Under the pieces are notes generated by a model. It had not been told where the DNA came from. It did not search any database and saw only the letters and a list, made by a program, of their open reading frames with translations. Positions 4 through 30,532 of a stretch of 64,000 nucleotides of DNA are shown here, in pieces. The stretch lies in IMG/VR virus record IMGVR_UViG_3300044732_000442, positions 32,001 to 96,000 of that record. One strand, written 5' to 3'. Numbering within the stretch: the first letter of the stretch is position 1; each line of letters begins with the position of its first letter. A program made the position numbers and the translations under genes. The stretch is from a virus.

Positions 4-627
4 ATGGTAACAATAGAATTATTAACAGCAATGTGTCCAAAAACAAAACGCTCTATATTAGAGGGTTACGTTGAGCCACTAAACACAGTAGCAGAATACT
101 ATGAGATGTTTGAAAACCCACGCAGAGTTGCCGGCTTCTTAGCACAGATAGCACATGAGAGTGGTGGTTTTAATGCTGTCATTGAAAACTTAAATTACAG
201 TGCTAAAGGATTGATGGGTACGTTTAAAAAATATTTCCCCAATGAAGAACTAGCAAAGCAATATGAACGTAAACCAGAAATGATTGCTAATCGTGTTTAT
301 GCTAATCGTATGAAGAACGGCGATGAGAACAGTGGTGATGGATTCAGATTCAGAGGTCGTGGATTGATTCAATTGACCGGGCGTGACAACTATACACGTT
401 TTGCAGAAGCATTAGACATGAGTATTGAAGATACCGTAAGATATTTAGAAACACCAAATGGTGCTGTTGCAAGTGCTGGTTGGTTTTGGGATAACAATAA
501 ATTAAATCAGTTCTGTGACCGCGATGATTTTGTAACACTAACAAAACGTATCAATGGTGGTACTATTGGGTTAGAAGATAGAAAACATCACTATCACTTA
601 GCATTAGAAAATTTAGGCGCACATTAA
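4..627 (+). CDS. Glycoside hydrolase family 19 endolysin
   Basis: FLAQIAHESGGF, ENLNYS, FRGRGLIQLTGRDNY, TKRINGG are typical phage GH19 lysin motifs. Confidence 0.93.
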   Translation: MVTIELLTAMCPKTKRSILEGYVEPLNTVAEYYEMFENPRRVAGFLAQIAHESGGFNAVIENLNYSAKGLMGTFKKYFPNEELAKQYERKPEMIANRVYANRMKNGDENSGDGFRFRGRGLIQLTGRDNYTRFAEALDMSIEDTVRYLETPNGAVASAGWFWDNNKLNQFCDRDDFVTLTKRINGGTIGLEDRKHHYHLALENLGAH

Positions 628-10881: not shown

Positions 10882-11679
10882 ATGACAGATCATTACTCCA
10901 CATTAGGCGTTGGTAAAAATGCTAATGCCGAAGAAATTAAAAAAGCATATAGAAAATTAGCAGGTAAACATCACCCTGATAAAGGTGGTGATACTGCTAC
11001 ATTTCAAAAGATTGAAGAAGCATATCGCATTCTTTCTGATCCACAACAAAAACAACAATATGATAATCCTATGACTCAGGGTAATCCATTTCAAGGATTC
11101 CCGGGTGGAGGTTTCCAATTCAATATGAATGGGTTTAATATGGATGAAATATTTGGTCAAATGTTTAGACAACATAACCATCAACAACAAAATACATATA
11201 GAACTACATATTGGATTAGTTTAGAACAAGTATACAATGGCGGTGACGAAGTATTAAAACTACAAACTCCTACTGGATTACATATGGTTAAAGTAAATAT
11301 TCCAAAAGGGATACATGACGGTGGGCAAGTGCGTTATGAAAAAGTAGTTAATTCATCAGATTTGATTGTGGAATATAGAATACATAATCACTTAAAATAT
11401 GAAAGAAAAATGAATGATTTGTATGCCAATTATTCTATATCAATATTAGATTTAATTGTTGGCACATCATTTGAATTTACTACTATTAGTGGTAGAACTT
11501 TAGAAGTAACGGTAGCTCCAAAAACTCAACCATATATGCATTTAAAACTAAGTAATCATGGCATGCCAATACAAGGTACTAATGCGTATGGCGACCAAAT
11601 CATCTTGCTAAAAACCTATATGCCTGATATTATAGACAGTCGTATAACTGATAGCATTTTGCAATCTAAAACACAGTAA
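10882..11679 (+). CDS. dnaJ: DnaJ/CbpA-type co-chaperone
   Basis: J-domain with HPD, G/F region and C-terminal DnaJ_C domain; no Zn finger. Confidence 0.9.
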
Positions 11680-11703
11680 ATATTATTTTTAAAGGAACTG
11701 GAT

Positions 11704-13980
11704 GTGAATAATTCACCCGAAATTGAAGCCATTATTGAACAGGCTATAGAGTTGTCCAAACAACGTAAACATGAATATTGCACAATTGAACACTTACTAT
11801 TGTCTCTTATCACACATACTCCATTTAAAAAATGTTTAGATAGTTTTGGGTGTGATACTCAAACTATGGTAGTAGAGGTTACTTCATATATTGATAGTTT
11901 ACATGCTATCGTTGCAAAAGTAGATCCTGCTATTCAGGTGCAACCTAGAAAAACAAACAGTTTAGAACGGGTAATGAATCGTTCAGTAACTCAAGTACTC
12001 TTTACTGGGCGCAGGCAAGTAACTACTATTGATTTGTATTTAAGTATCGCAAGTGAAGGTAATAGTCATGCACATTACTTCTTACTAAAATACGGTATTC
12101 ATAAAAATGAATTTGTTGCACATTGGCAAAAAACTTATAAAGGTGCTGAATTTACTGCAAAACTTTCTGAAAGTCAAGCAGATGAAATCTTGGAAGAATA
12201 TACAACTAATCTAACTGATTTAGCACGTACAGGTAAATTAGAACCCTTGATTGGACGTAGCACAGAACTAGATGATATTGTTAACGTTCTTGCTAAAAGA
12301 TTCAAATCAAATGTATTGATGGTAGGTGATCCAGGTGTGGGTAAAACAGCAATTGCTGAAGGGCTTGCTACAATGATTGTAGATAAAACTGTACCTGAAT
12401 TCTTACACGGACATGAATTGTATTCACTTGAAGTGGGTGCATTACTTGCTGGAAGTAAATATCGTGGTGACTTTGAAGAAAAAGTCAAACAAGTATTAGA
12501 TGCATTGAACACTAAGAAAAATTCAGTATTGTTTATTGACGAAGCTCATACTATGAAGGGTAGTGGTTCATCTAGTAGTGGTTCAATTGATTTTGCTAAT
12601 ATGATTAAACCTGCAATCACTAAAGGTACATTGAAAGTTATTGCAAGTACTACTTGGGAAGAATACTACGAATCATTTGAAAAGGATCGTGCATTAATGC
12701 GTAGATTCTATCGTGTTTCTATTGACGAGCCCTCACATGATAGTACCATTCGTATCCTTAAAGGTCTAAGTACCCGATTGAATGATTTTCACAATGTTGA
12801 AATTAGTGAAGAAGCTGTTGTTGCAGCCGTAGATAGTTCAGCACGTTATATTCATGACCGAAAGAATCCAGACAAAAGTATTGACCTGTTAGATGCGGCT
12901 TGTGCAAAACAACGTGTTGCAGGTAATAAAGGTGCAATTATTACTAAAGACTTGATCCATGATCAGGTTGAACGATTCACTGGTGTCCCTGCTGATAAAC
13001 TTAATGGTGATAACTTTGACCGTATCAATAGCCTTGAAGTTAATATCAAAGGCAAACTATATGGACAAGATGAAACAGTTGAACAAGTGTTAGAACGTAT
13101 ATATGTTTCATTCGCTGGAATCGGTAATGAACATAAACCTACAGCAAGCTTTATCTTCTTAGGCCCAACTGGTACAGGTAAAACAGAATTGGCTAAGTTG
13201 TTAAGTAAAAATCTTGACATGCCATTACTCAAATATGATATGTCAGAGTATAGTGAGAAACACTCTGTATCAAGTTTGATTGGTCCTCCACCTGGCTATG
13301 TTGGGTTCGGTGATAGTCAAGTAGGTGGCGGACGATTAATTAATGATTTGAGCAAGAACCCACATAGTATATTGTTGTTTGATGAAGTTGAAAAAGCTCA
13401 TCCGGATATCTTTAATATCTTTTTACAAATGTTAGATGAAGGTCATATCACTGGAAGTAACGGTAAAGAAGTTAACTGCAAGAATACTATCATTATTATG
13501 ACTAGTAATTTGGGTAGTAGTGATAGTGAGAAGAACAATATTGGATTCGGTAGCCAAGAAAAGACAGGTGAAGATGATAAAGCAATTAAAGAGTTTTTCA
13601 AACCTGAATTCAGAAATCGTATTGATTTGATTTGTAAGTTTGGTAAACTTAATACTCTTGCTATTAAGAAGATTGTGGTTAAGTTTACAGAAGAATTAAA
13701 GAAAGCTTTACTAGAAAAACATAATATTAGTTTGAATTTAAGTGAGCCAGTAGTTGATTACTTGGCTGATAAAGGATATGATAAGAATATGGGTGCTCGT
13801 CCATTAAGTCGTAAGATTGATGAATTGATTCGTGTACCACTAAGTAAGAAAGTATTGTTTGAACGTATTAAAAATGCTAGTGTAACTTGTGTTTTAGTAG
13901 ATGAAAAAATTGAATTTACTGTTGTTCAAAAATCAATAGCGAAAGTAGGAGAAGATGGGATCATTGAAATTAGCAACTGA
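11704..13980 (+). CDS. clpA: ClpA/ClpB-family AAA+ chaperone
   Basis: Clp N-domain; two AAA modules (GDPGVGKT, GPTGTGKT, FDEVEKAH, MGARP); no ClpB middle domain. Confidence 0.92.
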   Translation: MNNSPEIEAIIEQAIELSKQRKHEYCTIEHLLLSLITHTPFKKCLDSFGCDTQTMVVEVTSYIDSLHAIVAKVDPAIQVQPRKTNSLERVMNRSVTQVLFTGRRQVTTIDLYLSIASEGNSHAHYFLLKYGIHKNEFVAHWQKTYKGAEFTAKLSESQADEILEEYTTNLTDLARTGKLEPLIGRSTELDDIVNVLAKRFKSNVLMVGDPGVGKTAIAEGLATMIVDKTVPEFLHGHELYSLEVGALLAGSKYRGDFEEKVKQVLDALNTKKNSVLFIDEAHTMKGSGSSSSGSIDFANMIKPAITKGTLKVIASTTWEEYYESFEKDRALMRRFYRVSIDEPSHDSTIRILKGLSTRLNDFHNVEISEEAVVAAVDSSARYIHDRKNPDKSIDLLDAACAKQRVAGNKGAIITKDLIHDQVERFTGVPADKLNGDNFDRINSLEVNIKGKLYGQDETVEQVLERIYVSFAGIGNEHKPTASFIFLGPTGTGKTELAKLLSKNLDMPLLKYDMSEYSEKHSVSSLIGPPPGYVGFGDSQVGGGRLINDLSKNPHSILLFDEVEKAHPDIFNIFLQMLDEGHITGSNGKEVNCKNTIIIMTSNLGSSDSEKNNIGFGSQEKTGEDDKAIKEFFKPEFRNRIDLICKFGKLNTLAIKKIVVKFTEELKKALLEKHNISLNLSEPVVDYLADKGYDKNMGARPLSRKIDELIRVPLSKKVLFERIKNASVTCVLVDEKIEFTVVQKSIAKVGEDGIIEISN

Positions 13981-14680: not shown

Positions 14681-14715
14681 AATGATAAATACTCTAATAA
14701 AATGGAGTATTTACC

Positions 14716-15267: not shown

Positions 15268-16728
15268 ATGAGTACGATTGTTATAATGCCCGGAGGATTT
15301 CATCCCTTTCATGCTGGACATGCATCATTGTATCAATCCGCATTAAAAGCATTTTCGGGTGCTGATGTATATGTTGCGGCTACTAATGATACAAAGACAA
15401 GACCTTTCCCATTTGCTATTAAAGAAAAATTAGCTAAGGTAGCAGGTGTAGCTCCTGGACATTTTATACAAGTTAAAAGTCCCTTTCAACCTAGAGAAAT
15501 TACTGATAAGTTTAATCCAGAACAAGATGTAGTAATATTTGTTCGTAGTGAAAAGGATCGTAATGAGAGTCCTAAACCAGGTGGAACAAAGAAAGATGGT
15601 AGTCCAGCTTACTTTCAACCATATACAGGCAAAGATGTACAACCATTTGGCAAACATGCATATATGGCTTATTTACCTACAGTAGAATTTGGTCCTGGTA
15701 TTAGTAGTGCAACAGAGATACGTAATGCATGGCCTAAATTGAATGACAAACGTAAGACTGCAATGGTTATGAGTTTGTATCCAGCAACACAAAAGAATCC
15801 TAAATTAGCCGCTAACGTTGTTAAGATGTTAGATATGGGTATGGGTAATGAGTTAGCAGAAGGATTAATAAATGAATTTGTACCACCGAGTAGCGACAGA
15901 GGTGGCGGGGATGATAGAAGTCGTAGAATAAGAAAACTATTAGAAATTGCTATACAAGTAGCAAAGGAAAAAAATGTTGATGAATTGGGTATGATTCATG
16001 CTATGAATATGATAGCAGGTGATGAATTTTTCAATACAGCAGTTGAAGGTATACTACCAGATATAACAGATAAAGAATATATGTTTGTGCTACAGAGTGC
16101 TTATAAAACAGTAAAGCAAGGTTTGGCGGAAGGTGATGTTGTTCCATTCAAACAACCATCAAAAACATTAACGTGGCAACAAGTACCTAAAGATATTTTG
16201 ATGTTAGCAAATGATTGGTTTTGGGCAAGTGAAGATAACTCAGGTCTTGCCGCTACGATAGATCCTGATGGTTTCGGTAATGGTACTGCTAATGATGTAA
16301 AGTATAATGCCGCTAAACTTCAACAAAAAGGTTGGACAATTGATTTTAATGATGAATATGATGGGCCGGGTGAGTTCAATCTAAGACTTACTAACAATCG
16401 TGGACAAAATGTATTGTTGTCTATTGAAGATGCTCAGACATTTACTGGCTGGGCAAAGGGTACTAGTCAGTATGATTTAGAAGAAGGCCCTATAGTTAAA
16501 CGTATTGTTCATCCTAACAAGATTAATATCTATGTAAGACCAGGTGGTAATAAACCTCCTTTACTTGTCGCAACAGATATTCCTTATAAAATATTTGATA
16601 AGTATGTAAACAAAGCTATACAAAAATACCCACAGTTTAAACAAACTGATTTCTCATTCAAATCTTCAGATAAAATTAAGGAAGAAACTAATTTATCCGA
16701 AAGTGCTGATTACTTAGACGAAAATTAA
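15268..16728 (+). CDS. Cytidylyltransferase-like (HxGH) domain fused to extra modules
   Basis: PGGFHPFHAGH and ISSATEIR motifs; downstream segments delimited by ELAE/LINE/QGLAE/DLEE. Confidence 0.75.
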   Translation: MSTIVIMPGGFHPFHAGHASLYQSALKAFSGADVYVAATNDTKTRPFPFAIKEKLAKVAGVAPGHFIQVKSPFQPREITDKFNPEQDVVIFVRSEKDRNESPKPGGTKKDGSPAYFQPYTGKDVQPFGKHAYMAYLPTVEFGPGISSATEIRNAWPKLNDKRKTAMVMSLYPATQKNPKLAANVVKMLDMGMGNELAEGLINEFVPPSSDRGGGDDRSRRIRKLLEIAIQVAKEKNVDELGMIHAMNMIAGDEFFNTAVEGILPDITDKEYMFVLQSAYKTVKQGLAEGDVVPFKQPSKTLTWQQVPKDILMLANDWFWASEDNSGLAATIDPDGFGNGTANDVKYNAAKLQQKGWTIDFNDEYDGPGEFNLRLTNNRGQNVLLSIEDAQTFTGWAKGTSQYDLEEGPIVKRIVHPNKINIYVRPGGNKPPLLVATDIPYKIFDKYVNKAIQKYPQFKQTDFSFKSSDKIKEETNLSESADYLDEN

Positions 16729-17799: not shown

Positions 17800-18732
17800 A
17801 TGCAACTTGACAATGTAACTATTAGTGGTGGATTTGCTTATACAGTAGGAGCTCCCACTCAAGCAACAGCAGGATGGTATGGTGGAGGTAGAGCACCATC
17901 ATCTGTATCTACCGTGCAAAGAATAACTTTTGCAACTGACACCTCAACAGCAAGTGTACGTGGTCCATTAAGCTTCATCGTATCTCAATTTGCCGCGGCC
18001 GGCAATACAACTAACGGATGGTTTGGCGGAGGTTATACAGAGCCTGGACAAACATCTACAGTTCAACGAATAACATACGCAACAGATACAGCAACAGCGA
18101 CAGCACGTGGTCCTTTAAGTTTAACACTAAGTGGTTTAGTAGCCACCGGTAATACAACTGACGGTTGGTTTGGCGGAGCCTTTTCCATATCAACCGTAAA
18201 TAGGATCACTTATTCAACAGATACAGCAACTGCATCGGTTCGAGGTCCATTTAGCGCAAGTAAACTATTTTCGGCAGCAGCCGGTAATACAACTGACGGA
18301 TGGTTTTTTGGAGGCAGAGGATCTGAGTCGGTAGTAAATCGTATAACATATGCAACAGATACAAATACTGCAAGTGTACGTGGTCCGGTAAGTTTTGGTG
18401 TTGAGGCAGCAGCCGGTACCGGCAACACCACCGACGGATGGTTTGGAGGTGGTTATTCACCGGGCAATGGGAGGATTAGTACTATACAACGAATAACATA
18501 CTCAACAGATACAGCAACAGCAAGTGTTCGTGGTCCTTTAAGTGTAGCCGGGAGTTCCTGGTCTGCATCTAGTGACACCACATATGGATGGTTTGGTGGA
18601 GGTTATGTCGTTCCTAATATAATATCTACAATTCAACGAATAACTTTTGCAACAGATACTGTAACAGCGACAGCACGTGGACCGTTAAGTCTAGCAAGCC
18701 GACAGTTGGCCAGTGCATCCGGTATACAATAA
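17800..18732 (+). CDS. Repeat protein type A, six ~48-aa repeats (beta-propeller-like adhesin)
   Basis: 6x GWF/YGG...STVQRITYATDTATASVRGPLS. Confidence 0.75.
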   Translation: MQLDNVTISGGFAYTVGAPTQATAGWYGGGRAPSSVSTVQRITFATDTSTASVRGPLSFIVSQFAAAGNTTNGWFGGGYTEPGQTSTVQRITYATDTATATARGPLSLTLSGLVATGNTTDGWFGGAFSISTVNRITYSTDTATASVRGPFSASKLFSAAAGNTTDGWFFGGRGSESVVNRITYATDTNTASVRGPVSFGVEAAAGTGNTTDGWFGGGYSPGNGRISTIQRITYSTDTATASVRGPLSVAGSSWSASSDTTYGWFGGGYVVPNIISTIQRITFATDTVTATARGPLSLASRQLASASGIQ

Positions 18733-18735
18733 AAT

Positions 18736-19959
18736 ATGGACTTAAAAGAACTACATTCATTCAAAATGTCAGATGCAGTGACATTTCACGATAACCTCAA
18801 TCCAAAATTATTTCGTGGTCAGCACTTACAGCCTGAAGTAGAACTACAACTAAAAAATATAGCACAAGATTTCTTACAAGAGATGGGGATACATGATTTA
18901 GATGTACGAGATATCACTATCTCTGGAAGTAATGCAGCCTATAGCTACACAGACCATAGCGACTTAGATTTACATATATTAGTCAATATGAAGGATCTAC
19001 CAGACGATGACATTTACCATGAATTCTTCAAAGCTAAAAAAGATTTATACAACGATTCACATGATATCACTATCAATGGAATTCCAGTAGAATTGTATAT
19101 ACAGGATGCGGCAGAACCTGTAACTAGTTTAGGTGAATATAGTGTTAAAGATAAGAAATGGTTGCGTTTGCCAACTAAACGTAGAGCAAATTTTGACCAA
19201 ACAGCTACTAAAGCAAAATATACAAAACTATTAGATATTATTGATACAGCATTACAATCTAATAAAATAGGTAAAGTTAATAAAATATTAAAAAAGATTA
19301 AGCAATATCGTCAAGCTGGCTTAGATAAAGGTGGAGAGTTTGGACCTGAAAATCTAGCATATAAAGCATTACGTAGCCGTGGATATATTACAAAACTATA
19401 TGATTTAAGAGATAGATTACATAGCAAACATTTGAGTTTAGATAACATGTATGCTAATGTAGATGAAGATTATGATCCAAATGGACCTCCACCTGGTCCA
19501 GAGTTTAAGCCAACAATGCCTGCCGGTACAGTTAAAGTAGATGTAAGTGATGTATATGATTGGTATAAACTAGGTCAACATATTAGCAATCTTGATGGTT
19601 TAGGTAAACATGATTTTGGTCAAGGTCCTCCTAGCACTATTCTTGCGTTTGGCGATGAAGATACTGAACATAAATATATTAAAGATTTAGAAAAAACAGG
19701 ATTGACAACAACGGATATTGATCCAGTTGATATTAATCAGCCTAAAGGTATGAAACGTCAGAAGACTGATCCTACATACAATGTGGGCGAAGCCTCAGGT
19801 TATATACCATCTGAAAAAGAGAAAAAAGACCCACGTTTTAGTACAGCATTAACAGTAGATGTTAAGCCTGACAGCATCAAAAAGAACGCAAAAGCATTCT
19901 ATTGGAATACAAGTAGAGCGGGTATTCCACCAACAGCAAAGCCATCAGGCAAAATCTAA
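18736..19959 (+). CDS. Pol-beta-superfamily nucleotidyltransferase with appended modules
   Basis: GSNAAY...SDLDLH and VELYIQD catalytic pattern. Confidence 0.7.
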   Translation: MDLKELHSFKMSDAVTFHDNLNPKLFRGQHLQPEVELQLKNIAQDFLQEMGIHDLDVRDITISGSNAAYSYTDHSDLDLHILVNMKDLPDDDIYHEFFKAKKDLYNDSHDITINGIPVELYIQDAAEPVTSLGEYSVKDKKWLRLPTKRRANFDQTATKAKYTKLLDIIDTALQSNKIGKVNKILKKIKQYRQAGLDKGGEFGPENLAYKALRSRGYITKLYDLRDRLHSKHLSLDNMYANVDEDYDPNGPPPGPEFKPTMPAGTVKVDVSDVYDWYKLGQHISNLDGLGKHDFGQGPPSTILAFGDEDTEHKYIKDLEKTGLTTTDIDPVDINQPKGMKRQKTDPTYNVGEASGYIPSEKEKKDPRFSTALTVDVKPDSIKKNAKAFYWNTSRAGIPPTAKPSGKI

Positions 19960-20014
19960 TAAGTTTCCATATTATGGTATTTTGATAAATACACTATTAG
20001 TATGGAAATCCGTT

Positions 20015-20938
20015 ATGAAAATCAAACAAATCACTGAAACTACAACCGCAGGCTCAATAGCTACTGTAAATTCACCATTAGGTGGCACTCAAAGTAGGGG
20101 AAATACTAGCATATATGGTGGCAAAAAAGTAGGAACTCTATTCAAGGGTAAAAAGACTAGTGTCCCATATGCTAATAGCATCAATGAAAGTGCTGAACTT
20201 AGTGAAGCACAACTAGAAGAAGATGATGTTATTGTCGTTCCGGGACAAGGTCGCAAATCAAAAACTGGATTTGTTCCACATGGACAAAGTCGTATAGACC
20301 ATGAAGTTGAGATGGCACGTAGTGATTTATTCAGTGCCGCAAAGAATGCTCAACAAGTCTATTCAATGATTAAAGATGTTAGTGAAGATGAAGGTCTTGA
20401 TGGTTGGGTACAAGAAAAGATTATTAAAGCTAATGACTATCTAAACACAATACGTGAATACTTAGAAGGTAAACAAATTCAAGGTGTGAATGAAGGACCC
20501 GAGTTTGGTTCAAAGTATGCAGAAAAATTAGCACAATATGTTTATAATGTTAGACCTAATCTTAATAGTGAAGATGATGTTTTAAACATAGGATATAAAG
20601 TTGCTGTACAAGATTTAGCCAGTCAAACACGTGCTGTATCGTTGTTTAGCAGAGATCAAGATTTCCCTAGTGACTTTGTAAGTGCTTATAGATTCTTACA
20701 AAAAAGACGAGGTGTAACAGAAAACAACCAAAGAGGTGATTCACTTGTTACTGACTCATTAAAAATAATGCGTGGTGCAGAAGTAAGTGATGCTGTAAGA
20801 GCACTAACGACCGTACTAGGAAATAGAGAATACAATAGCCGTCGTGGTTTTTACAATTTCTATATTAAACAAATGATTGATATGTATAGACAACAAGGTG
20901 TGAATGAAGGTTCTAAGTCACCTAATAAGAAAGCGTAA
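20015..20938 (+). CDS. Modular internal head protein (putative)
   Basis: ATG 20015 MKIKQITE after gaTAAATA; QGVNE linkers. Confidence 0.6.
   Translation: MKIKQITETTTAGSIATVNSPLGGTQSRGNTSIYGGKKVGTLFKGKKTSVPYANSINESAELSEAQLEEDDVIVVPGQGRKSKTGFVPHGQSRIDHEVEMARSDLFSAAKNAQQVYSMIKDVSEDEGLDGWVQEKIIKANDYLNTIREYLEGKQIQGVNEGPEFGSKYAEKLAQYVYNVRPNLNSEDDVLNIGYKVAVQDLASQTRAVSLFSRDQDFPSDFVSAYRFLQKRRGVTENNQRGDSLVTDSLKIMRGAEVSDAVRALTTVLGNREYNSRRGFYNFYIKQMIDMYRQQGVNEGSKSPNKKA
20480..20910 (+). repeat. 17-nt direct repeat caaggtgtgaatgaagg (20480-20496 and 20894-20910)
   Basis: Exact repeat encoding the QGVNEG linker. Confidence 0.85.
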
Positions 20939-20939
20939 T

Positions 20940-23741
20940 ATGAGCAATATTCTTAAAGGTATAATAAACGAAACTAGTCCGCATAATTACGATAGTGATT
21001 GGGATTATCAGGATGCTTTAGCACGTAGTGGCAAATCACGTTCTAGCTATCGTTCACAAGAAGATGATACGTCTGATGCTGATATTGCATATTCTAAAAA
21101 GATGTATCAATTGGGTCAACAACAGAAGGCTGCTAAAGAGAAAGCTCAACGTGATAATGACCATGATAGATTAGCAACTGGTACAAATGAAGATGATAGT
21201 AATCAAACTAGAATGAGAATGAATGATTATTACGATTTAGCTGAGGCTCTTCAGGAAAAGCTTAGACAAGCAATTAAGATGGGTAATAACGAACTTGTAC
21301 ATAAATTATCCAAAGAACGTGCTGAATTAGATGCACGTGTTAAAAAATATGGATTAATGCCTGAATCAGAACAATTAGATGAAATCTCTAATGAGAAATT
21401 GGCACAATACAAAACAGCTGCCGCCGCCGACGCAGGCAAAGCTGATAAAGAGGGAGACTTTAAGCGTGGTGATAAACGTTTCAGTGGTATTGTTAAAGCA
21501 ACTAAGAAACAATTTGCAAATGATACAAAGAAATCTGGTATAGGTCAAGGTATTTCAGAAGATAGATTTAACAGTAAACAAGAAGTTATTAACCATTTTG
21601 TTAAAAATGGTAAAAGTGCGGCAGCAGGTGCGGCAGCATGGGAACGTGGTTATAGAGGTTCAAATCCTAACAAACCAATAGAAATAAAAAAGCCACCTCA
21701 AAGAAGTTACCATGATGATTTAGATGATAAACGTTATTCTAATACGTTTGAAAATTTAGGTGATCAACTAAAATCACAATCTCTAGAAGCATTACAACAA
21801 ATCAAACAACAAATTGAACAAAAACGTGCCGACGAATTAGCTCAATGGGAACAAGATTTTAGAAATAATGTTGCTGGCAAAATGAGAAGCCAACCAATAC
21901 GTTCACCGGAAGCAACACCGGTTGCACAACCTGGTGAGAAGCATTCAGTATTAAAAGCTAGATTAGCACAACTCAATAATGCTATACAAAAACAAGAACT
22001 ATTGGACAAGTTAATTGATAAAATTGACCGTAAAGGTTTGTTGACTCCAGCAATGCAGAACGATGCTGATACTAGAATGCATGTTAAGTATGGTGCAAAA
22101 GATAACTATCAATCATTGAATAAAAAGTTAGACAATTCTATTTCAATGTTACAGGATAGATTGTATATACGTAAAAAATCAGGTTTAAAAGAATCGCCTA
22201 AGAGAATTGATTATGATAGTGATACATATGATAATACTAGAATGGGTAGAGAGTATGGCAAGGCTAATCTATTTGTAGATCCGGGGTCAAATGAATTTAA
22301 AAAAGAAATACATCCTGGAGATCCTGAAGGTGAACGTGGTAGACCAAGAAATCTAAAAGGTATTTCAAAAAGGTTACCTGCTGATGCGTTTGGTCGTACT
22401 AGCGGAGTTGTTCCTGATAGTGCAAGACCTAAATCAAAAGAAGATCCTTTTAAAGGAGTAGATGAAGCTGATATGAACCGTAGAGGGTTTTTAGGACAAG
22501 CAGGCAAGGCTGCAGGTGCTGGCGCATTGGCTGCCGCAGGCTTAGGTGGTGCTAGCAATGCTCAAGCATTTAAGGGAACACTTCCTGCTCCTCGTATATC
22601 TGAAGATGAGGCTGAAGCTCAAATTAAAGAATTAAGAAGTAAAGCATATAAAGAGTTAGCAAGTATGATGTGGAATGTATGGCCTAAAATACTAGACACA
22701 ACATTTGGCGCAAATACTCCTCAAGATAAGCCAGCTACACCCGATGAAATTGGTAAAATGTTAGGCTACAGATTAGCTGAATATGCTGATGACTATAGAC
22801 AAAAAGTTAGAGCAATTAAAATAGCAGCCGGAGTAAGAGATCCTCAAAGTTTAAATAAAACAACTGCCGCAATTTATGTTAATGAACAAGAGATGGATGA
22901 GGGTTGGAGTCAAAAGTACAAGAGTAGTATCAACTGTAGTCATCCTAAAGGTTTTAGTCAAAAAGCTCATTGTGCAGGCAAGAAGAAACACAATGAAAGT
23001 ATTGACAATGTTATGGAAATGACATGTCCTGATTGTGGTATGTGTGAAACTCACGTAGACCATGCTAAGTTAGATGAAGCTTGTTGGAAAGGTTATCACA
23101 AAGAAGGTAACAAAAAAATGTTTGGCAAAACATATCCTAACTGTGTAAAGAATACTAACGAAGAACAACTAGATGAAAAATGCTGGGACACACATAAACA
23201 AGTTGGAATGAAAAACAAAGGTGGACGTATGGTCCCTAACTGTGTGCCTAAAGAAAGTGTAGAAGAACAACATTCACATAGTGAAAGTTGTCCGCATTGT
23301 GGTGGCGAGATGGTTAGTGAAGAACTAATGAATGAAAAGAAAGATGCTTGCTACTACAAAGTAAAGAGCCGTTATAAAGTATGGCCAAGTGCTTATGCAT
23401 CTGGTGCGTTAGTTAAGTGCCGCAATAAAGGCGCAAGTAACTGGGGTACAGGCGGAAAGAAAAATGAAAGCTCTATACTAGAAGGTATTGAACAAGCAGA
23501 CGAAAGTTTACATGATTGGTTCAATAAAGAAAAATGGGTTCGCATGGATACTAAAGGAAAGATTAAAGGTCCGTGTGCAAGAGAACCAGGCGAAGGTAAA
23601 CCAAAATGTTTGCCACAAAGTAAAGCACATAGTCTAGGTAAAAAGGGTCGTGCTAGTGCCGCTCAACGTAAGCGTAGAGAAGATCCTAATCCAGAACGTA
23701 GTGGCAAAGCCATTAATGTTGATACAAAAAAGAAAGATTAA
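20940..23741 (+). CDS. Large mosaic polyprotein, putative head-packaged
   Basis: MSNILKGIINE start; many short modules bounded by LDE/GISE/GVDE; internal Tat-like signal; Cys-rich C-terminal modules. Confidence 0.65.
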   Translation: MSNILKGIINETSPHNYDSDWDYQDALARSGKSRSSYRSQEDDTSDADIAYSKKMYQLGQQQKAAKEKAQRDNDHDRLATGTNEDDSNQTRMRMNDYYDLAEALQEKLRQAIKMGNNELVHKLSKERAELDARVKKYGLMPESEQLDEISNEKLAQYKTAAAADAGKADKEGDFKRGDKRFSGIVKATKKQFANDTKKSGIGQGISEDRFNSKQEVINHFVKNGKSAAAGAAAWERGYRGSNPNKPIEIKKPPQRSYHDDLDDKRYSNTFENLGDQLKSQSLEALQQIKQQIEQKRADELAQWEQDFRNNVAGKMRSQPIRSPEATPVAQPGEKHSVLKARLAQLNNAIQKQELLDKLIDKIDRKGLLTPAMQNDADTRMHVKYGAKDNYQSLNKKLDNSISMLQDRLYIRKKSGLKESPKRIDYDSDTYDNTRMGREYGKANLFVDPGSNEFKKEIHPGDPEGERGRPRNLKGISKRLPADAFGRTSGVVPDSARPKSKEDPFKGVDEADMNRRGFLGQAGKAAGAGALAAAGLGGASNAQAFKGTLPAPRISEDEAEAQIKELRSKAYKELASMMWNVWPKILDTTFGANTPQDKPATPDEIGKMLGYRLAEYADDYRQKVRAIKIAAGVRDPQSLNKTTAAIYVNEQEMDEGWSQKYKSSINCSHPKGFSQKAHCAGKKKHNESIDNVMEMTCPDCGMCETHVDHAKLDEACWKGYHKEGNKKMFGKTYPNCVKNTNEEQLDEKCWDTHKQVGMKNKGGRMVPNCVPKESVEEQHSHSESCPHCGGEMVSEELMNEKKDACYYKVKSRYKVWPSAYASGALVKCRNKGASNWGTGGKKNESSILEGIEQADESLHDWFNKEKWVRMDTKGKIKGPCAREPGEGKPKCLPQSKAHSLGKKGRASAAQRKRREDPNPERSGKAINVDTKKKD

Positions 23742-23750
23742 AGAGTAATT

Positions 23751-24191
23751 ATGTTGTCAGACAATCTAAAAGTATTACTAGCAAGCACACAAAGTTTTGC
23801 TATCAAAACACAAAACTTTCATTGGAACGTAGAGGGAAGTAACTTTCCACAATATCACGAATTCTTTAATACATTGTACGAAGATGTAAGTGCTACGATT
23901 GATCCTATTGCTGAATATATAAGAATACTAGGTCACTATACTCCTGGCAGTCTAACACGTTATGCTGAACTAAGTATCATACAAGACCAAATAAAGATTC
24001 CACGTGCTGAATTAATGTTTGTTGAATCATTACAAGATTGTGAAACAATGCTTCAGTTAGTAACAGCAATGTTTGATGAGGCAGCTGGTGAGAATCAACA
24101 TGGTATTGAAAACTATATGGCTGAACTACAAGACTTGTATGGTAAGAAAGCATGGTTCATTCGTTCTATATTAAAAAGAGAACGTGAATGA
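23751..24191 (+). CDS. dps: Dps / ferritin-like DNA-protecting protein
   Basis: KTQNFHWNVEG...FPQYHEFF...DPIAEYIR...KKAWF. Confidence 0.9.
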   Translation: MLSDNLKVLLASTQSFAIKTQNFHWNVEGSNFPQYHEFFNTLYEDVSATIDPIAEYIRILGHYTPGSLTRYAELSIIQDQIKIPRAELMFVESLQDCETMLQLVTAMFDEAAGENQHGIENYMAELQDLYGKKAWFIRSILKRERE

Positions 24192-25066
24192 GAGCAACAG
24201 AGTTTATTACCGAACAAGCAAATCCTAAAGTAGATTTGACTCCAAATTATCCTAACTATCAAGTGTTAGTGGGTGAGTTTGTCGGTATGAAAAAAAACAG
24301 AGCAAGATTTTTAATTGTAGCCTCTGAACTTAAACCAGGTGTGCGAGAGACTGATAAAATTTTTAGAGCTAGAACTACTAATACACCTATCAGTATTGAG
24401 ATTGGTAGGGTAAAAAATCGTAATGTAGTAGATGAAGATTTATCACGTAGAGGCTTCTTAGGTGGTTTAGCTGGTATGGCTGCACTAGGTACTAGAGATA
24501 CAAAACCTACTGTTAATAAAGATACACCAACGGCACCACAAAAAGAACCTACTGTAACTACATTGAGTAACAATCCTCAAATTGAGAGTTTATTACATAA
24601 AGCCGCTGTAGCTGCCGGTATAGTTGGTATTGAATTAGCACAGTTTATGGCTCAAACTAAACATGAATCCTGGAATTTTAGTAGACTAAAAGAAAAGGGT
24701 GTAGGTCAAGGCTATTTTGCTAAAAAGTATGACCGTCAATATGCACCACGTACTGCTAAGATATTGGGTAATAAGCAGATAGGTGATGGAGAAAAATATC
24801 ATGGTCGTGGATTTATTCAATTGACCGGTCGTGATAACTATCGTATGGCTAGTCAAAGTTTAGGTATTGATTTATTAAATGATCCTGATTTAGCAGAACG
24901 ACCAGATGTTGCAGCCAAGATTGCTATATGGTATTGGAAGACACGTGTTAAACCCTATATAAATAACTTCAACGATACGAAGGCAGTAACACAAAAGATT
25001 AATCCAGCACTACGTGGATTACAAGATAGACATGCAAAGTTTATTGACTACAAAAACATATTATAA
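24188..25066 (+). CDS. GH19 lysozyme-like domain preceded by capsid-targeting start and internal Tat-like motif
   Basis: MRATEFITE; DE|DLSRRGFLGG; FMAQTKHES, YHGRGFIQLTGRDNY. Confidence 0.85.
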   Translation: MRATEFITEQANPKVDLTPNYPNYQVLVGEFVGMKKNRARFLIVASELKPGVRETDKIFRARTTNTPISIEIGRVKNRNVVDEDLSRRGFLGGLAGMAALGTRDTKPTVNKDTPTAPQKEPTVTTLSNNPQIESLLHKAAVAAGIVGIELAQFMAQTKHESWNFSRLKEKGVGQGYFAKKYDRQYAPRTAKILGNKQIGDGEKYHGRGFIQLTGRDNYRMASQSLGIDLLNDPDLAERPDVAAKIAIWYWKTRVKPYINNFNDTKAVTQKINPALRGLQDRHAKFIDYKNIL

Positions 25067-25074
25067 AGAGAACC

Positions 25075-25512
25075 ATGAAGAAAATAATAACAATCATACT
25101 ATTAGCAATATCTACTATTGCATTTGCACAAAAACAAAAGCCAATGAATGTATATGATTTTACAATCACTAGAGTTATTGATGGAGATACAGTAGCATTT
25201 CAAGCAACATTTTTACCCCCACCATTAAAGCAAGAATTAAGTATTCGTGTGTTTGGTGTTGACACACCTGAAAAGGGTCATAGAGCAATGTGCCCCAGTG
25301 AAGCACAGCGTGGCGAGGCTGCTTCGGCCTTCACAAAAAATGCCATAGCTAAAGCACAGAAACGTCAAGTAGCTATAGCTGATTGGGATAAGTATGGTGG
25401 ACGTGTATTGGGTGATATATTACTTGATGGACAAAGTTTAAGAATGATGTTAATACAGAATGGATTTGCAAGAGAATACTACGGAGAAGCTAAAACTTCT
25501 TGGTGCAACTAA
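25075..25512 (+). CDS. Thermonuclease (SNase-like) with Sec signal peptide
   Basis: MKKIITIILLAISTIAFA signal; RVIDGDT, IRVFGVDTPE, DKYGGRVLG. Confidence 0.88.
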   Translation: MKKIITIILLAISTIAFAQKQKPMNVYDFTITRVIDGDTVAFQATFLPPPLKQELSIRVFGVDTPEKGHRAMCPSEAQRGEAASAFTKNAIAKAQKRQVAIADWDKYGGRVLGDILLDGQSLRMMLIQNGFAREYYGEAKTSWCN

Positions 25513-25609: not shown

Positions 25610-26185
25610 ATGAGAGCAATAGAACTATACGAATCGGCCGCAAGTGAACTAGCTAAGAAACTTCCTAGCTTAGAGAAACACGACTATAATACCATTGATA
25701 AGCTAATGAAAAACATAGCAAAGAAACATCGTATAACCGGTGATGCATTGCATGATTTGTTTGTTAGAAAATATCATAAGACTCCAGACAGTTGGATTAA
25801 AGATAAACTAGATGAGAGTGAACAAGAAGATTTGAATAACAATCCTATTGTACAGAAGTTTCTTGCTTGGACAAGTAAGAAGTTGAATTTAGAAAATACT
25901 CCAAAGATAGAGTTTAGTTATGATAGTGATGAAGCACAAGAAGGTCATCATACTGGTAGACACAATCCAGAGACGGGTGAAGTATGGGTTTATTGTGCTA
26001 ATAGAAATCTAGTAGATATATTACGTACTGTGTTCCATGAATTAACTCATGTACGCCAGGGTGAATTAAATATGATTAAGCCGGGTGATAGTTATCCAGG
26101 TAGTCCAATAGAAGCAGAAGCGGATGTAATGGCTGGCAAATATATTAAAATATTTGGTAAAGCACATCCAGAAATATTTCAATAA
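25610..26185 (+). CDS. Putative head-packaged protein with HExxH zincin-like domain
   Basis: ATG 25610 MRAIELYE after caTAAATA; LDESEQE linker; VFHELTHVRQ...EAEA. Confidence 0.7.
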   Translation: MRAIELYESAASELAKKLPSLEKHDYNTIDKLMKNIAKKHRITGDALHDLFVRKYHKTPDSWIKDKLDESEQEDLNNNPIVQKFLAWTSKKLNLENTPKIEFSYDSDEAQEGHHTGRHNPETGEVWVYCANRNLVDILRTVFHELTHVRQGELNMIKPGDSYPGSPIEAEADVMAGKYIKIFGKAHPEIFQ

Positions 26186-26197
26186 AGAGAATAAAAT

Positions 26198-27202
26198 ATG
26201 TCAATATCAATAACAGGTGGAATATCATTTAGTGGTGGAGTAGGAATAACTGCCGCACCACCATCAACTCCAACAGCAGGATGGTTTGCAGGTGGGTCTG
26301 ACGATTCTGGTGTTACTTCAACAGTACAACGAATAACATATGCAACTGATACCGCTACTGCAAGTGTTCGTGGACCATTAAACGGCACCAGATATCAAAA
26401 TGCCGGTACCGGTAATTTAAATTATGGATGGTTTGCTGGTTCACGCATTACAGTTGCTATTAGCTCAGTATCAAGGATCACCTATGCAACAGATACTGAT
26501 ACAGCAAGTAATCGCGGCCCACTAAGTTATAGTGCTTATAGTATTACTGCGAACGGCACAGATACATATGGATGGTTTGCAGGTGGTAAGGATCAATCAC
26601 CTAGTGATTATTCTACAGTATCCAGAATAACATACGCAACTGATACTGGTACTGCAAGTACAAGGGGATCATTATCCGGTTGTTCATATCAAGGTGCAGC
26701 ATCTACTGACAGCACTACATATGGCTGGATTGCAGTAGGATTTGATAACCCTAGTACTATCGGATACCGTAGTATCGTAACTAGGATAACATATGCCACT
26801 GATACAGTAACATCAACTATTAGAGGTCCATTAAGTTCAACTAGATCATCAATGGCCGGTACTGGTAGTACAAGTTATGGTTGGTTTGCCGGTGGATTTT
26901 TCGTCGGCCCGCCGACATGGGAGGGAATTTATTATTCTAGGGTAGATCGTATTGATTATGCAAATGATACCGCTACAGCAAGTGTTCGTGGTCCGTTAAC
27001 TAGAACTAATCAAGGTCAAGCAGCATCAACCGATGGAACAACATATGGTTGGTTTGGTGGAGGAAATAATTTTTCAACTCCTGCCGGTCCTTTTTCTTCC
27101 GTAGACAGAATAACATATGCTACTGATACTGTTACTGCGACTGCACGTGGCCCGTTAAGTTCCGGTAGGAGGGTTTTTGCTGCCTCATCCGGTATACAAT
27201 AA
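26198..27202 (+). CDS. Repeat protein type A (six repeats), paralog of 17800..18732
   Basis: 6x GWFAG...RITYATDT...RGPL; same C-terminal SGIQ. Confidence 0.75.
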   Translation: MSISITGGISFSGGVGITAAPPSTPTAGWFAGGSDDSGVTSTVQRITYATDTATASVRGPLNGTRYQNAGTGNLNYGWFAGSRITVAISSVSRITYATDTDTASNRGPLSYSAYSITANGTDTYGWFAGGKDQSPSDYSTVSRITYATDTGTASTRGSLSGCSYQGAASTDSTTYGWIAVGFDNPSTIGYRSIVTRITYATDTVTSTIRGPLSSTRSSMAGTGSTSYGWFAGGFFVGPPTWEGIYYSRVDRIDYANDTATASVRGPLTRTNQGQAASTDGTTYGWFGGGNNFSTPAGPFSSVDRITYATDTVTATARGPLSSGRRVFAASSGIQ

Positions 27203-27217
27203 TATAAAGGTTAAAAA

Positions 27218-27715
27218 ATGTCAATAACAATAACAGGTGGAATAACATTAAATGGTGGTGGTTGGACTATTGAGGCACCACCGGCGGGTATTAGGGCTAT
27301 ATTTGGTTATGGAAATGATGGATCAGTAACATCAATAACTAATTTAGTATCAACTACTGGTGTTGTTGCCACAGATACCGCAGGGGTAGGGACTGCTAGA
27401 TATGGATTGGCAGCCGCAGGATATGGCACAGATAAAGCTATATTTGGATATGGATATGCCTCTCCAAGCGCACGTTCAATCACCAATCTAGTATCAAATA
27501 CAGGTGTTGTTGCTACTGATACAGCAGGTGTAGGTACTGCTAGATATCAAATAGCCGCCGCAGTGTATGGCACAGATAAGGCTATATTTGGTTATGGATA
27601 CGGGGTTTCTTGGACATCAATAACTAACCTAGTATCAAACACCGGTGTAGTAGCAACAGATACAACAGGTGTTGGCACTGCTAGAGCTGAAATTGCGGCA
27701 GCAGCCTACGGTTAA
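27218..27715 (+). CDS. Repeat protein type B (3 repeats)
   Basis: AIFGYG...TNLVSNTGVVATDTxGVGTAR...AAAxYG x3. Confidence 0.75.
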   Translation: MSITITGGITLNGGGWTIEAPPAGIRAIFGYGNDGSVTSITNLVSTTGVVATDTAGVGTARYGLAAAGYGTDKAIFGYGYASPSARSITNLVSNTGVVATDTAGVGTARYQIAAAVYGTDKAIFGYGYGVSWTSITNLVSNTGVVATDTTGVGTARAEIAAAAYG

Positions 27716-27737
27716 TTATACAATAAAGGTTTTATAA

Positions 27738-28397
27738 ATGTCAATAACAATAACAGGTGGAATAACATTAAATAATGGTGGTTGGACTATAGTTGCACCA
27801 CCCGCAGGTAATAAAGCTATCTTTGGATACGGGACTGATGGTATTTCTCTATTAGCAATGACCAATCTAGTATCAAACACTGGTGTAGTAGCCAATGATA
27901 CTACAGGTGTTGGTACTGCTAGATTATACTTAGCAGCCGCCGGCTATGGAACAGATAAAGCTATTTTTGGATATGGGGTTACATACTCTCCAGGTTTCAC
28001 TCCTTACTCAATTACCAATCTTGTATCAAATACAGGTGTTGTTGCTACTGATACAACAGGTGTTGGAACTGCTAGAGGAACATTAGCAGCCGCAACCTAT
28101 GGCACTGATAAAGCTATATTTGGATACGGGTATAACGGAAGTACTAATGTATCAACTACTAATCTAGTATCAAACACAGGTGTTGTTGCTAGTAATACTA
28201 CAGGTGTTGGAACTATTAGAGGAACATTAGCAGCCTCAGGTTATAGCACTGATAAAGCTATATTTGGATATGGATTTGCCAATAGTGGCATAGTGTCAAT
28301 GACTAACCTAGTATCAAACACAGGTGTTGTTGCTACTGATACTACAGGTGTTGGAACTGCTAGAGAGGAATTAGCGGCCGCAAGTTACGGATCTTAA
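27738..28397 (+). CDS. Repeat protein type B (4 repeats)
   Basis: Same repeat x4. Confidence 0.75.
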   Translation: MSITITGGITLNNGGWTIVAPPAGNKAIFGYGTDGISLLAMTNLVSNTGVVANDTTGVGTARLYLAAAGYGTDKAIFGYGVTYSPGFTPYSITNLVSNTGVVATDTTGVGTARGTLAAATYGTDKAIFGYGYNGSTNVSTTNLVSNTGVVASNTTGVGTIRGTLAASGYSTDKAIFGYGFANSGIVSMTNLVSNTGVVATDTTGVGTAREELAAASYGS

Positions 28398-28440
28398 CAT
28401 TATGATTAACATAAATACATTTATTATAAAGGAAAATAAA

Positions 28441-28656
28441 ATGATAGACTTAGAAAACATGCCTGCTCCAACAGCAGAGGAAATTGCACAAGCAAGAGAA
28501 AATGCATTTAATGCAGAACATCCAGCATCATGGACATGGGATGAGGCAGCAACTACATATGTTGCTCCAGTTGCTATTCCAAGTGATGGTTATCCATACT
28601 TATGGGATGAAGCTACAACTAATTGGGTACCATTTCCAGATTATCCAAGAGAATAA
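28441..28656 (+). CDS. Small Trp/Pro-rich protein, fibre-associated type
   Basis: ATG 28441 with aagga RBS and upstream caTAAATA; internal WDEA(A)TT duplication. Confidence 0.6.
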   Translation: MIDLENMPAPTAEEIAQARENAFNAEHPASWTWDEAATTYVAPVAIPSDGYPYLWDEATTNWVPFPDYPRE

Positions 28657-28659
28657 AGA

Positions 28660-29583
28660 ATGTCGGTAACATTTAGTGGTGGCGGTGTAACAATATCAGG
28701 CGGAGGATGGACTCTTAGTCCTCCACCAGGTGGTAGTAAGGCTATCTTTGGATATGGTTATAACGGGACAAATTTGTCAATTACTAATTTAGTATCAAAC
28801 ACAGGTGTTGTTGCCAATGATACTACAGGTGTCGGTACTGCTAGATTTGGATTGGCGGCCGCAGGATATGGCACAGATAAAGCTATATTTGGATATGGAT
28901 TCGGAGCTAGTAGAACGTCAATAACTAACCTAGTATCAAATACAGGTGTAGTTGCTACTGATACTTCAGGAGTTGGAACTGTTAGAAGTGATTTAGGAGC
29001 CGCAGGATATGGTACTGATAAAGCTATATTTGGTTATGGATATACAGGTGGTGTCTCTTTTATATCAATAACCAATCTAGTATCAAATACGGGTGTGGTT
29101 TCCGGTGATACTGCAGGTGTTGGTACTGCTAGAGGTTATCTTGCAGCCGCAGGTTATGGCACTGACAAAGCTATTTTTGGATATGGTAACGGTAGCGGAT
29201 TGCAATCAATAACCAATCTAGTATCAAACACGGGGGTTGTTGGCAACAATGTTACAGGTGTAGGTACTGCTAGAGATAGTCTTGCAGCCGCTAGTTATGG
29301 TACTGATAAAGCTATATTTGGTTATGGATCTGGACCAACTGCAATAACTAACTTAGTATCAAACACAGGTGTAGTTGCTACTGATACAACAGGTGTTGGA
29401 ACTGCTAGATATTATCTTGCGGCCGCAGGATATGGGGTAGGTACAGCTATATTTGGATACGGTGAGAATGGTAGTATTAATGTATCAATGACCAACTTAG
29501 TATCAAACACCGGTGTAGTTGCTACAGATACTACAGGTGTCGGTACTGCTAGACAATTATTAGCGGCCGCAAGTTACGGTTAA
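28660..29583 (+). CDS. Repeat protein type B (6 repeats)
   Basis: Same repeat x6. Confidence 0.75.
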   Translation: MSVTFSGGGVTISGGGWTLSPPPGGSKAIFGYGYNGTNLSITNLVSNTGVVANDTTGVGTARFGLAAAGYGTDKAIFGYGFGASRTSITNLVSNTGVVATDTSGVGTVRSDLGAAGYGTDKAIFGYGYTGGVSFISITNLVSNTGVVSGDTAGVGTARGYLAAAGYGTDKAIFGYGNGSGLQSITNLVSNTGVVGNNVTGVGTARDSLAAASYGTDKAIFGYGSGPTAITNLVSNTGVVATDTTGVGTARYYLAAAGYGVGTAIFGYGENGSINVSMTNLVSNTGVVATDTTGVGTARQLLAAASYG

Positions 29584-29605
29584 TTATACAAAGAAAGAAT
29601 AAAGA

Positions 29606-30532
29606 ATGTCGGTAACATTAAACGGTGGTGTAACATTTGGCGGAGGGTTAACTCTTACTGCCGGACCAGCCGGTAATAAAGCTATATTTGGATACGGGTA
29701 CATTTCAGCAGTAGGAGAGACTGCAATAACCAATCTAGTAAGTAATACAGGCGTTGTAGCAACTGATACAGCTGGAGTAGGTACTACCAGAACTAACCTA
29801 GCGGCGGCTGGGTATGGTACTGATAAAGCCTTATTTGGTTATGGAGAAGGAAATGGTACTTATTTATCAATAACTAACAAAGTAAGTAATACAGGTGTGG
29901 TGGCTAATGATACTGCAGGTGTTGGTACTGGTAGAACTGGAATTGCAGCCGCAGGTTACGGGACTGATAAAGCTATATTTGGATATGGCTACGCCTCTGG
30001 CGGCAGAACAGCAATAACTAACAAAGTATCAAACACCGGAGTAGTTGCTACTGATACGACAGGTGTAGGTACTATTAGAAATGGACTAGCGGCCGCAGGC
30101 TATGGAACCGATAAAGCTATATTTGGATATGGGCAAAATTATCCCACTTATTATTCGTTAACCAATCTAGTAAGTAATACAGGTGTAGTAGCAACTGATA
30201 CAACTGGTGTTGGAACTATTAGAAGTGAGCTAGCGGCAGCAGGTTATGGTACGGATAAGGCTATATTTGGATATGGATATGCTTCCGACAATTCAAGTGT
30301 ATCAATGACCAACCTAGTATCAAACACAGGAGTAGTAGCAACAGATACGACTGGTGTTGGTACTGCTAGGTTTTATCTAGCTGCCGCTGTTTACGGCACT
30401 GATAAAGCTATATTTGGATATGGAGTAACAACAGCAGTAACTAATTTAGTATCAAATACAGGTGTGGTTGCTACAAATACTACTGGTGTTGGTACAGCAA
30501 GATATTCACTTGCGGCGGCCGCCTACGGTTAA
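29606..30532 (+). CDS. Repeat protein type B (6 repeats)
   Basis: Same repeat x6. Confidence 0.75.
   Translation: MSVTLNGGVTFGGGLTLTAGPAGNKAIFGYGYISAVGETAITNLVSNTGVVATDTAGVGTTRTNLAAAGYGTDKALFGYGEGNGTYLSITNKVSNTGVVANDTAGVGTGRTGIAAAGYGTDKAIFGYGYASGGRTAITNKVSNTGVVATDTTGVGTIRNGLAAAGYGTDKAIFGYGQNYPTYYSLTNLVSNTGVVATDTTGVGTIRSELAAAGYGTDKAIFGYGYASDNSSVSMTNLVSNTGVVATDTTGVGTARFYLAAAVYGTDKAIFGYGVTTAVTNLVSNTGVVATNTTGVGTARYSLAAAAYG

Follow-up and report, generated by a model that had tools for sequence, protein, structure and literature searches.

The protein described here is encoded by an open reading frame (ORF) at positions 24188-25066 (+) of a 64,000-nucleotide stretch of viral DNA (the window; positions 32,001 to 96,000 of IMG/VR record IMGVR_UViG_3300044732_000442). 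Its 292 residues begin with MRATEFITE and comprise a 9-residue tag, a 74-residue folded module (module A), a twin-arginine segment from D84 onwards and a Pro/Thr linker, followed by an intact GH19 muramidase domain (Table 1). We interpret this arrangement as that of a head cargo protein which is packaged, cut, ejected and finally exported by the next host through twin-arginine translocation (Tat), and we give this whole chain of events a probability of about 0.4. Packaging and processing, taken on their own, appear fairly probable from the sequence features set out below.

In the proposed pathway the tag would steer the GH19 precursor into the prohead core, and a gp21-type prohead protease would cut after hydrophobic-x-Glu, both behind the tag and at E83↓D84 (the arrow marks a presumed cut). 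These cuts would free module A and a fragment of ~209 residues with the N-terminal Tat signal D-L-S-R-R-G-F-L-G-G. The fragment would be ejected with the DNA into the cytoplasm of the next host and fold there; it contains neither Cys nor any known cofactor. The Tat system of this host would carry it to the periplasm, and its GH19 domain would cut peptidoglycan. No TatA or TatC was found in the five phage records searched, so that the Tat system of the host would be needed. An A-x-A motif would let signal peptidase release the enzyme in most homologues, and the window copy, which has no clear A-x-A, may remain membrane-tethered. We infer packaging, cleavage, ejection and Tat export, as well as the purpose of early wall cutting, from the sequence.

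The catalytic domain is recognised by Pfam PF00182 (residues 149-256, 1.4e-16, 61.4 bits against a cut-off of 25.5), and the ORF matches the endolysin family phrog_181 at 2e-39. E160 (in H-E-S) and E169, which from our knowledge of the GH19 family we take to be the catalytic pair, are invariant in 43 aligned homologues, and the PDB relatives of the domain are the phage lysins 7r6s, 9ms7 and 4ok7. These matches and the ORF itself bear out the preliminary description of this stretch, which had recognised a GH19 protein starting with MRATEFITE; its unrelated module of about 75 residues before VVDE corresponds to the 74 residues of module A. The signal had been placed directly before the GH19 domain. 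The order is correct, but a linker of about 25-30 residues lies between the two, of low confidence or disordered in the structure model and strongly variable between homologues. In the same model the tag is disordered, as is the junction between module A and the signal, and both are therefore accessible. An internal translation start that would bypass the upstream parts was rejected, since no in-frame ATG, GTG or TTG occurs between V52 and M97, in agreement with the earlier remark that there is no Met near the twin arginine; M97 itself sits within the hydrophobic stretch behind it.

In related loci at least 20 unrelated ORFs, frequently next to one another, start with the tag pattern M-R-A-x-E-F-[I/L]-x-E, and several further ORFs of the window's genome begin with the tag. 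Its codons differ synonymously between ORFs, which indicates a constraint on the peptide and not on the DNA. By analogy, the tag appears to behave like the capsid-targeting sequence of T4, as had been supposed from this N-terminus alone and as its spread over unrelated ORFs and its conservation at the peptide level now suggest. The T4 sequence (given in PMC8442874) is a 10-residue leader common to unrelated internal proteins, which gp21 removes after L/I-x-E, and the cargo is injected together with the DNA (PMC9026906, PMC12373910). The ip loci of T4 are clusters of such tagged internal-protein genes (PMC12373910).

Kinship of the phage with T4 is shown by its PolB, which shares 43-48% identity with the polymerases of Sinorhizobium phage Phosso, Agrobacterium phage Atu_ph07 and Klebsiella phage RaK2; we therefore place it as an uncultured member of the T4-related jumbo myoviruses. 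The source record is a 116-kb IMG/VR viral contig with an estimated completeness of 34%, from which a full genome of probably ~340 kb follows. Near-identical DNA is present in 23 lake-water metagenome runs, and no RNA run is listed among the sequencing runs with such DNA. Cultured phages include no close DNA relative, and their protein matches span the GH19 domain only. A prohead protease of the gp21 type (Peptidase_S77) is encoded in the related records G001 and G002, both of which also carry tagged GH19 genes, and in RaK2.

Module A is modelled with confidence (AlphaFold2, predicted local distance difference test score 87). An exhaustive search located it in 24 representative proteins of 106-1106 residues, with no fixed place in the chain, and it turns up again in unrelated polyproteins, where the same Glu motif borders it. 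Its borders carry hydrophobic-x-Glu in 16 of 19 and in at least 14 of 17 contexts, against 14% and 6% expected, an enrichment that is inflated by the common ancestry of the module ends. The presumed cut before the twin arginine is strongly constrained in 117 homologues: P3 is V/I and P1' is D in all of them, and a motif of the hydrophobic-x-Glu type stands 3-4 residues upstream of the twin arginine throughout. The E↓xxRRxFL for which the preliminary description had suggested surveying the homologues is thus conserved in its twin arginine, and its Glu at P1 is found in 107 of the 117, the other 10 having Asp. No convincing match to the fold of module A was obtained (BFVD E-values of at least 0.25), and the best PDB Z score, 4.1 to small SH3/Sm/KOW-like barrels, lies within noise. 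Module A is also internal to four proteins (P0157, P0166, P0169, P0171) that start as does a 486-residue protein of the window (15268-16728, +), with the nucleotidyltransferase-like sequence G-G-F-H-P-F-H-x-G-H; in the window protein linker-joined modules follow.

The twin arginine, R87-R88, lies in the context VVDE↓DLSRRGFLGG and is followed by 14 uncharged, Gly/Ala-rich residues (G89-T102); in the window protein it is internal and would become N-terminal only after the presumed cut. S-R-R-G-F-L-G fits the Tat consensus S/T-R-R-x-F-L-K with the last Lys replaced by Gly, so that the S-R-R-x-F-L read here before is confirmed, and it is kept across a wide range of homologues. The motif is carried by 117 of 120 close homologues. 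RRGF does not change in any of 89 distinct contexts, and 88 of these have S or T just before it. Column by column, variation in the hydrophobic and C-terminal parts of the signal exceeds 2 bits; the uncharged stretch of the homologues extends over 14-26 residues (median 19). An A-x-A follows the stretch in 66 of the 117. Two families, that of the GH19 protein and that of the polyprotein treated below, share an invariant Asp three positions ahead of the twin arginine; this Asp lies outside the Tat consensus. In a six-frame scan of the window (ORFs of at least 80 residues) a long uncharged stretch comes after an RR-x-F-[L/A] motif only twice, once in the GH19 ORF and once at about residue 514 of the neighbouring polyprotein. 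The motif in the GH19 ORF exceeds chance.

Apart from GH19, the sole profile matches are to Tat-signal models, and their alignments begin at D84/L85, that is at the predicted new N-terminus, as they do in the other cassettes that were scored. TIGR01409 exceeds its cut-off of 16.7 bits in the polyprotein cassette (17.4) and in a shorter relative of the GH19 protein (L009, 18.8). The hydrophobic region averages 1.5 on the Kyte-Doolittle scale, whereas the phage's Sec signal on the adjacent nuclease averages 2.2; a lower hydrophobicity of this kind is what one expects of a Tat signal. The phage's other exported proteins carry ordinary N-terminal Sec or lipoprotein signals. No Tat-type motif stands at a plain N-terminus in the phage genome or in 33 related loci; wherever such a motif occurs, a tag or a cut motif precedes it. 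It seems rather likely that the twin-arginine segment has a real export function at some stage.

The second cassette lies deep inside the neighbouring modular polyprotein. In its 26 homologues the cassette is located at residues 352-916, always behind [V/I]-[D/E]-E, and the same M-S-N-I-L-K-G leader is combined with changing upstream modules. An in-frame ATG two codons before the twin arginine, with AAAGGAG 14 nt upstream, offers a possible internal start in the polyprotein, and the sequence upstream of the cassette is not conserved at the protein level among the homologues. The recurrence of the cassette bears on the idea that the GH19 signal is a relic, i.e., that a bacterial gene for a Tat-exported GH19 enzyme was captured behind phage modules and now yields a cytoplasmic endolysin released by a holin, its signal being inactive. 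GH19 endolysins are common, and the window copy stays under the Tat-profile cut-offs and has no A-x-A, which would suit a decaying signal. A relic should nevertheless not show a Tat consensus strictly constrained over 89 contexts in homologues with overall identities of 59-100%, nor should the same cassette be kept in an unrelated polyprotein family, and a separate GH19 protein without a signal is already encoded in the window. We consider this origin improbable.

The upstream part of the GH19 protein differs in length between relatives. Short forms of ~214 residues, found in more distant relatives on other viral contigs (L009, L010, L012-L018, L013, L025) have the tag directly followed by D-[I/L]-[S/T]-R-R-G-F-L-G, with the twin arginine at residues 12-14, and their Tat signal looks like an ordinary N-terminal one. 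The window protein is therefore such a form into which a module of 74 residues has been inserted between tag and signal. In other homologues module A is itself preceded by 20-185 more residues of unrelated modules, so that in the long forms 75-260 residues of shuffled modules separate tag and signal and the twin arginine is found at residue 105, 185, 207-211 or 268-270.

It is therefore too strong to state, as was done previously, that the signal can be exposed only by proteolysis: the short forms expose theirs, and in dual Sec-Tat membrane proteins a Tat signal works from an internal position (PMC5449189, PMC3471239). Both observations would also fit export in the producing cell, in which the Tat segment works uncut, either near the N-terminus (short forms, with a twin arginine within the range of normal Tat recognition) or as an internal, loop-inserting signal (long forms). 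The N-terminal modules would then stay in the cytoplasm, and a late periplasmic GH19 enzyme would serve as an accessory or early-acting enzyme of lysis or wall remodelling, membrane-tethered in the manner of signal-anchor-release (SAR) endolysins where A-x-A is missing. The Gly/Ala-rich, weakly hydrophobic segment and the apparently late expression of the gene cluster are consistent with this. The known internal Tat signals, however, follow Sec-inserted helices and not soluble folded domains, and otherwise the phage uses N-terminal Sec signals. Export in the producing cell also leaves unexplained why so many unrelated proteins share the tag, why two unrelated families have an invariant hydrophobic-x-Glu 3-4 residues upstream of the signal, and why signals lie 350-900 residues deep in polyproteins. 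We regard it as unlikely, though clearly less so than a relic.

A sister class of the tagged GH19 proteins (L019-L022, L024, L026) lacks the twin arginine. After [I/V/L]-[D/E]-E these proteins continue with G-W-K-[D/E], a Gly/Ala-rich stretch and A-x-A, a segment that looks Sec-like. The D-E-G-W motif of this class is also found inside the polyprotein of the window. The presence of a hydrophobic Gly/Ala-rich segment without twin arginine behind the same kind of Glu motif means that the hydrophobic stretch is the more general feature, and this can be read in favour of an anchor that acts independently of Tat. The protein would again be packaged and processed, and on ejection its hydrophobic segment would insert in the membrane during DNA delivery and hold the muramidase at the inner membrane or in the periplasm near the tail tip, where it would open the wall locally. 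Ejected wall-cutting proteins exist, e.g., T7 gp16, and GH19 domains occur inside large virion proteins of T4-like cyanophages. Such an anchor, by contrast, needs neither an invariant S/T-R-R-G-F-L beside a drifting hydrophobic part nor the A-x-A that 66 of the 117 homologues have behind the stretch. Tat-signal profiles also match the segment, and T4 internal proteins reach the cytoplasm (PMC9026906). We find an anchor of this kind doubtful, slightly more so than export in the producing cell.

We favour delivery to the next host followed by Tat export on the grounds of the observed T4 kinship, the tag family, the insertion of a mobile module, the borders with Glu motifs, the constraint on RRGF and the recurrence of the same layout in the polyprotein. 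The use of Sec and lipoprotein signals elsewhere in the phage, the restriction of Tat motifs to places behind tags or cut motifs and the availability of a second GH19 protein without a signal add to these grounds, as do the S77 protease genes of tag-bearing relatives and the disorder of the tag and the junction. The architecture of the protein and its modularity and conservation among homologues are directly visible in these comparisons.

Several observations weigh against it. The window copy falls just below both Tat-profile cut-offs (PF10518, 15.7 bits against 22.7; TIGR01409, 14.5 bits against 16.7), and the sole small-residue candidate for signal peptidase in place of A-x-A is A-L-G↓T. Hydrophobic-x-Glu is expected by chance about 2 times per 100 residues, and the test for its enrichment at the borders of module A is inflated by the shared ancestry already mentioned. 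The ~10 homologues with Asp at the presumed P1 have to be set beside the finding that Asp at P1 blocks processing in T4 (PMC9026906). The strict tag pattern is absent from RaK2, a cultured relative. A prohead protease was not found in the phage's own 116-kb, 34%-complete record, and the failure of PF03420 and PF07068 to match there is uninformative, as the record is only a fragment. Since the sister class lacks the twin arginine, Tat is not the general rule. Finally, no benefit of an early periplasmic muramidase is evident to us.

Table 1. Features of the GH19 gene and of neighbouring genes, in coordinates of the window.
Feature	Position	Strand	Remark
9-residue tag M-R-A-T-E-F-I-T-E, ending I-T-E	24188..24214	+	resembles T4 capsid-targeting sequence
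Module A, residues 10-83, small, beta-rich, ending V-V-D-E	24215..24436	+	mobile, independently folded
Presumed prohead-protease site E83↓D84	24434..24439	+	conserved in homologues; presumed cleavage
Tat-type signal segment D84-T102; R87-R88 at 24446-24451; hydrophobic region G89-G101	24437..24493	+	
Pro/Thr/Gln-rich linker, about residues 103-128	24494..24571	+	disordered in model, variable in homologues
GH19 muramidase domain including stop codon	24572..25066	+	E160 and E169 invariant; no Cys
Modular polyprotein, 933 residues from the conserved M-S-N-I-L-K-G start	20940..23741	+	second internal Tat cassette
Second cassette: V-D-E, A-D-M-N-R-R-G-F-L-G, Gly/Ala hydrophobic region, N-A-Q-A, then F	22458..22568	+	
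Tagged ORF starting M-R-A-I-E-L-Y-E-S, 191 residues, H-E-x-x-H module	25610..26185	+	same tagged gene cluster
Second GH19 protein, 207 residues, without tag or signal	4..627	+	phrog_181, 3.3e-74

Between the polyprotein and the GH19 gene lies an ORF for a Dps/ferritin-like protein (23751-24191, +; PF00210, 9e-17; phrog_3636), whose stop overlaps the GH19 start (ATGA), which makes co-transcription of the two genes probable. Immediately after the GH19 gene, the product of 25075-25512 (+) is of the staphylococcal-nuclease type (PF00565, 1.2e-11) with an ordinary N-terminal Sec-type signal, and looks like a secreted or periplasmic phage nuclease. The tagged ORF that follows matched no Pfam family; a homologue of its H-E-x-x-H module is fused ahead of GH19 in more distant phages (L033-L035). 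The late-promoter-like sequence ATAAATAC is located 6 nt upstream of its start. The motif [G/C]ATAAATAC occurs at 14685, 19985, 25598, 40211 and 53568, some copies being 6-25 nt before a start (e.g., those of the tagged ORFs at 25610 and 20015), and may be the late promoter of the phage, with the tagged cluster accordingly appearing late-expressed. The late-promoter octamer of T4, TATAAATA, is not enriched (2 found against 11.7 expected). The second GH19 protein is located among tail-fibre-like genes, and it is the likelier candidate for an ordinary endolysin.

Upstream of the polyprotein, the ORF at 19859-20938 (+) encodes repeated G-V-x-E↓G linkers that resemble the other module borders; translation probably begins in fact at M53 (20015; M-K-I-K-Q-I-T-E), downstream of the promoter-like motif at 19985. 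Paralogous repeat proteins of phrog_19111, with G-W-F-G-G or A-I-F-G-Y-G repeats, are encoded at 17800-18732 and 26198-30532 (+), with further copies upstream of the window, and are probably beta-propellers. A set of genes for protein quality control also seems to be present in the phage: the window contains, at 10882-13980, a ClpA/B-like ATPase (phrog_4871, 2e-234) together with a DnaJ-like start, and downstream of the window (G000:C1, about 98500-107100) are ClpX-, DnaK-, small-Hsp-, ClpS- and ClpP-like ORFs, assigned by their N-terminal motifs only.

If Tat export of an injected enzyme is true, this phage pre-loads an enzyme which the newly infected cell then exports to its periplasm, with a signal that stays silent until head maturation. 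To our knowledge, the injected phage proteins described so far are all effectors that act in the cytoplasm, for instance anti-restriction proteins or modifiers of RNA polymerase; the early take-over of the host would thus gain a new compartment, with injected proteins reaching beyond the cytoplasm. It would also be a natural bacterial case of protease-unmasked Tat targeting, and head cargo would turn out to be built of shuffled modules joined by protease sites. We tentatively extend this to T4-related environmental phages at large, where a two-step address, first capsid tag and prohead cuts and then export of injected effectors by the host, would be possible, though we hold it to be a little less probable than the chain proposed for the window protein; some trimmed fragments would begin with a Tat signal or, in the sister class, with a Sec-like one. 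The combination of tag and signal could serve periplasmic protein delivery with T4-type particles.

The closest known counterparts are the T4 proteins IPI, IPII, IPIII and Alt, which likewise have a short N-terminal tag with a basic residue, then E-F-I-x-E, and an end in L/I-x-E. As here, the tag of the T4 internal proteins is common to unrelated proteins clustered in variable loci; relatives of the window's phage encode an S77 prohead protease. T4 cargo, however, acts in the cytoplasm and has no export signal, whereas the GH19 protein is made of several modules and its fragment after the presumed cut would begin with a Tat signal. Proteins of the thylakoid lumen have bipartite transit peptides, in which a protease removes the first address and a Tat signal is exposed. 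They share with our proposal the serial addresses and a second passage through a membrane, but the likeness is conceptual only: their first address is a eukaryotic organelle import peptide instead of a capsid tag, and no homology exists.

SAR and signal-peptide endolysins, such as P1 Lyz, R of phage 21 and Lys44 of fOg44, resemble the window protein in being muralytic enzymes with a weakly hydrophobic, Gly/Ala-rich segment before the catalytic domain. Their segment is truly N-terminal and Sec-dependent, without twin arginine, tag or modules, whereas in the window protein it spans residues 89-101 behind a folded module and a twin arginine; the composition fits that of a SAR segment, and the position is internal instead of N-terminal. 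No natural Tat-dependent endolysin was encountered in the literature searched. Twin-arginine signals inside a polypeptide are found in actinobacterial Rieske-type dual Sec-Tat proteins, where they are functional (PMC5449189, PMC3471239). There the signal comes after Sec-inserted helices and is uncleaved, while here it comes after soluble modules and a protease-type motif.

Virion-associated hydrolases (GH19 domains in virion proteins of T4-like cyanophages; 7r6s, 4ok7, 9ms7) belong to the same catalytic family. These virion-associated or soluble GH19 lysins are structural tail or particle proteins or endolysins and do not have the layout of tag plus signal. In phiKZ, 201phi2-1 and SPN3US a protease related to gp21 cleaves many of the head proteins after Glu, and ejection follows (PMC9026906, PMC5694885); these phages differ in their S/A/G-x-E cut motif and their lineage, and no export signals are reported for them. 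The literature searched contains no paper that links a twin-arginine signal to a head protein of the ejected or internal kind. Tagged cargo of the T4 type, prohead proteases specific for Glu, Tat signals and GH19 lysins are each known separately, and the combination of tagged cargo, Glu cuts, Tat signal and GH19 is absent from that literature. New here are the series of short and long forms, the mobility of module A, the second cassette in the polyprotein, the sister class without twin arginine and the second GH19 protein without a signal.

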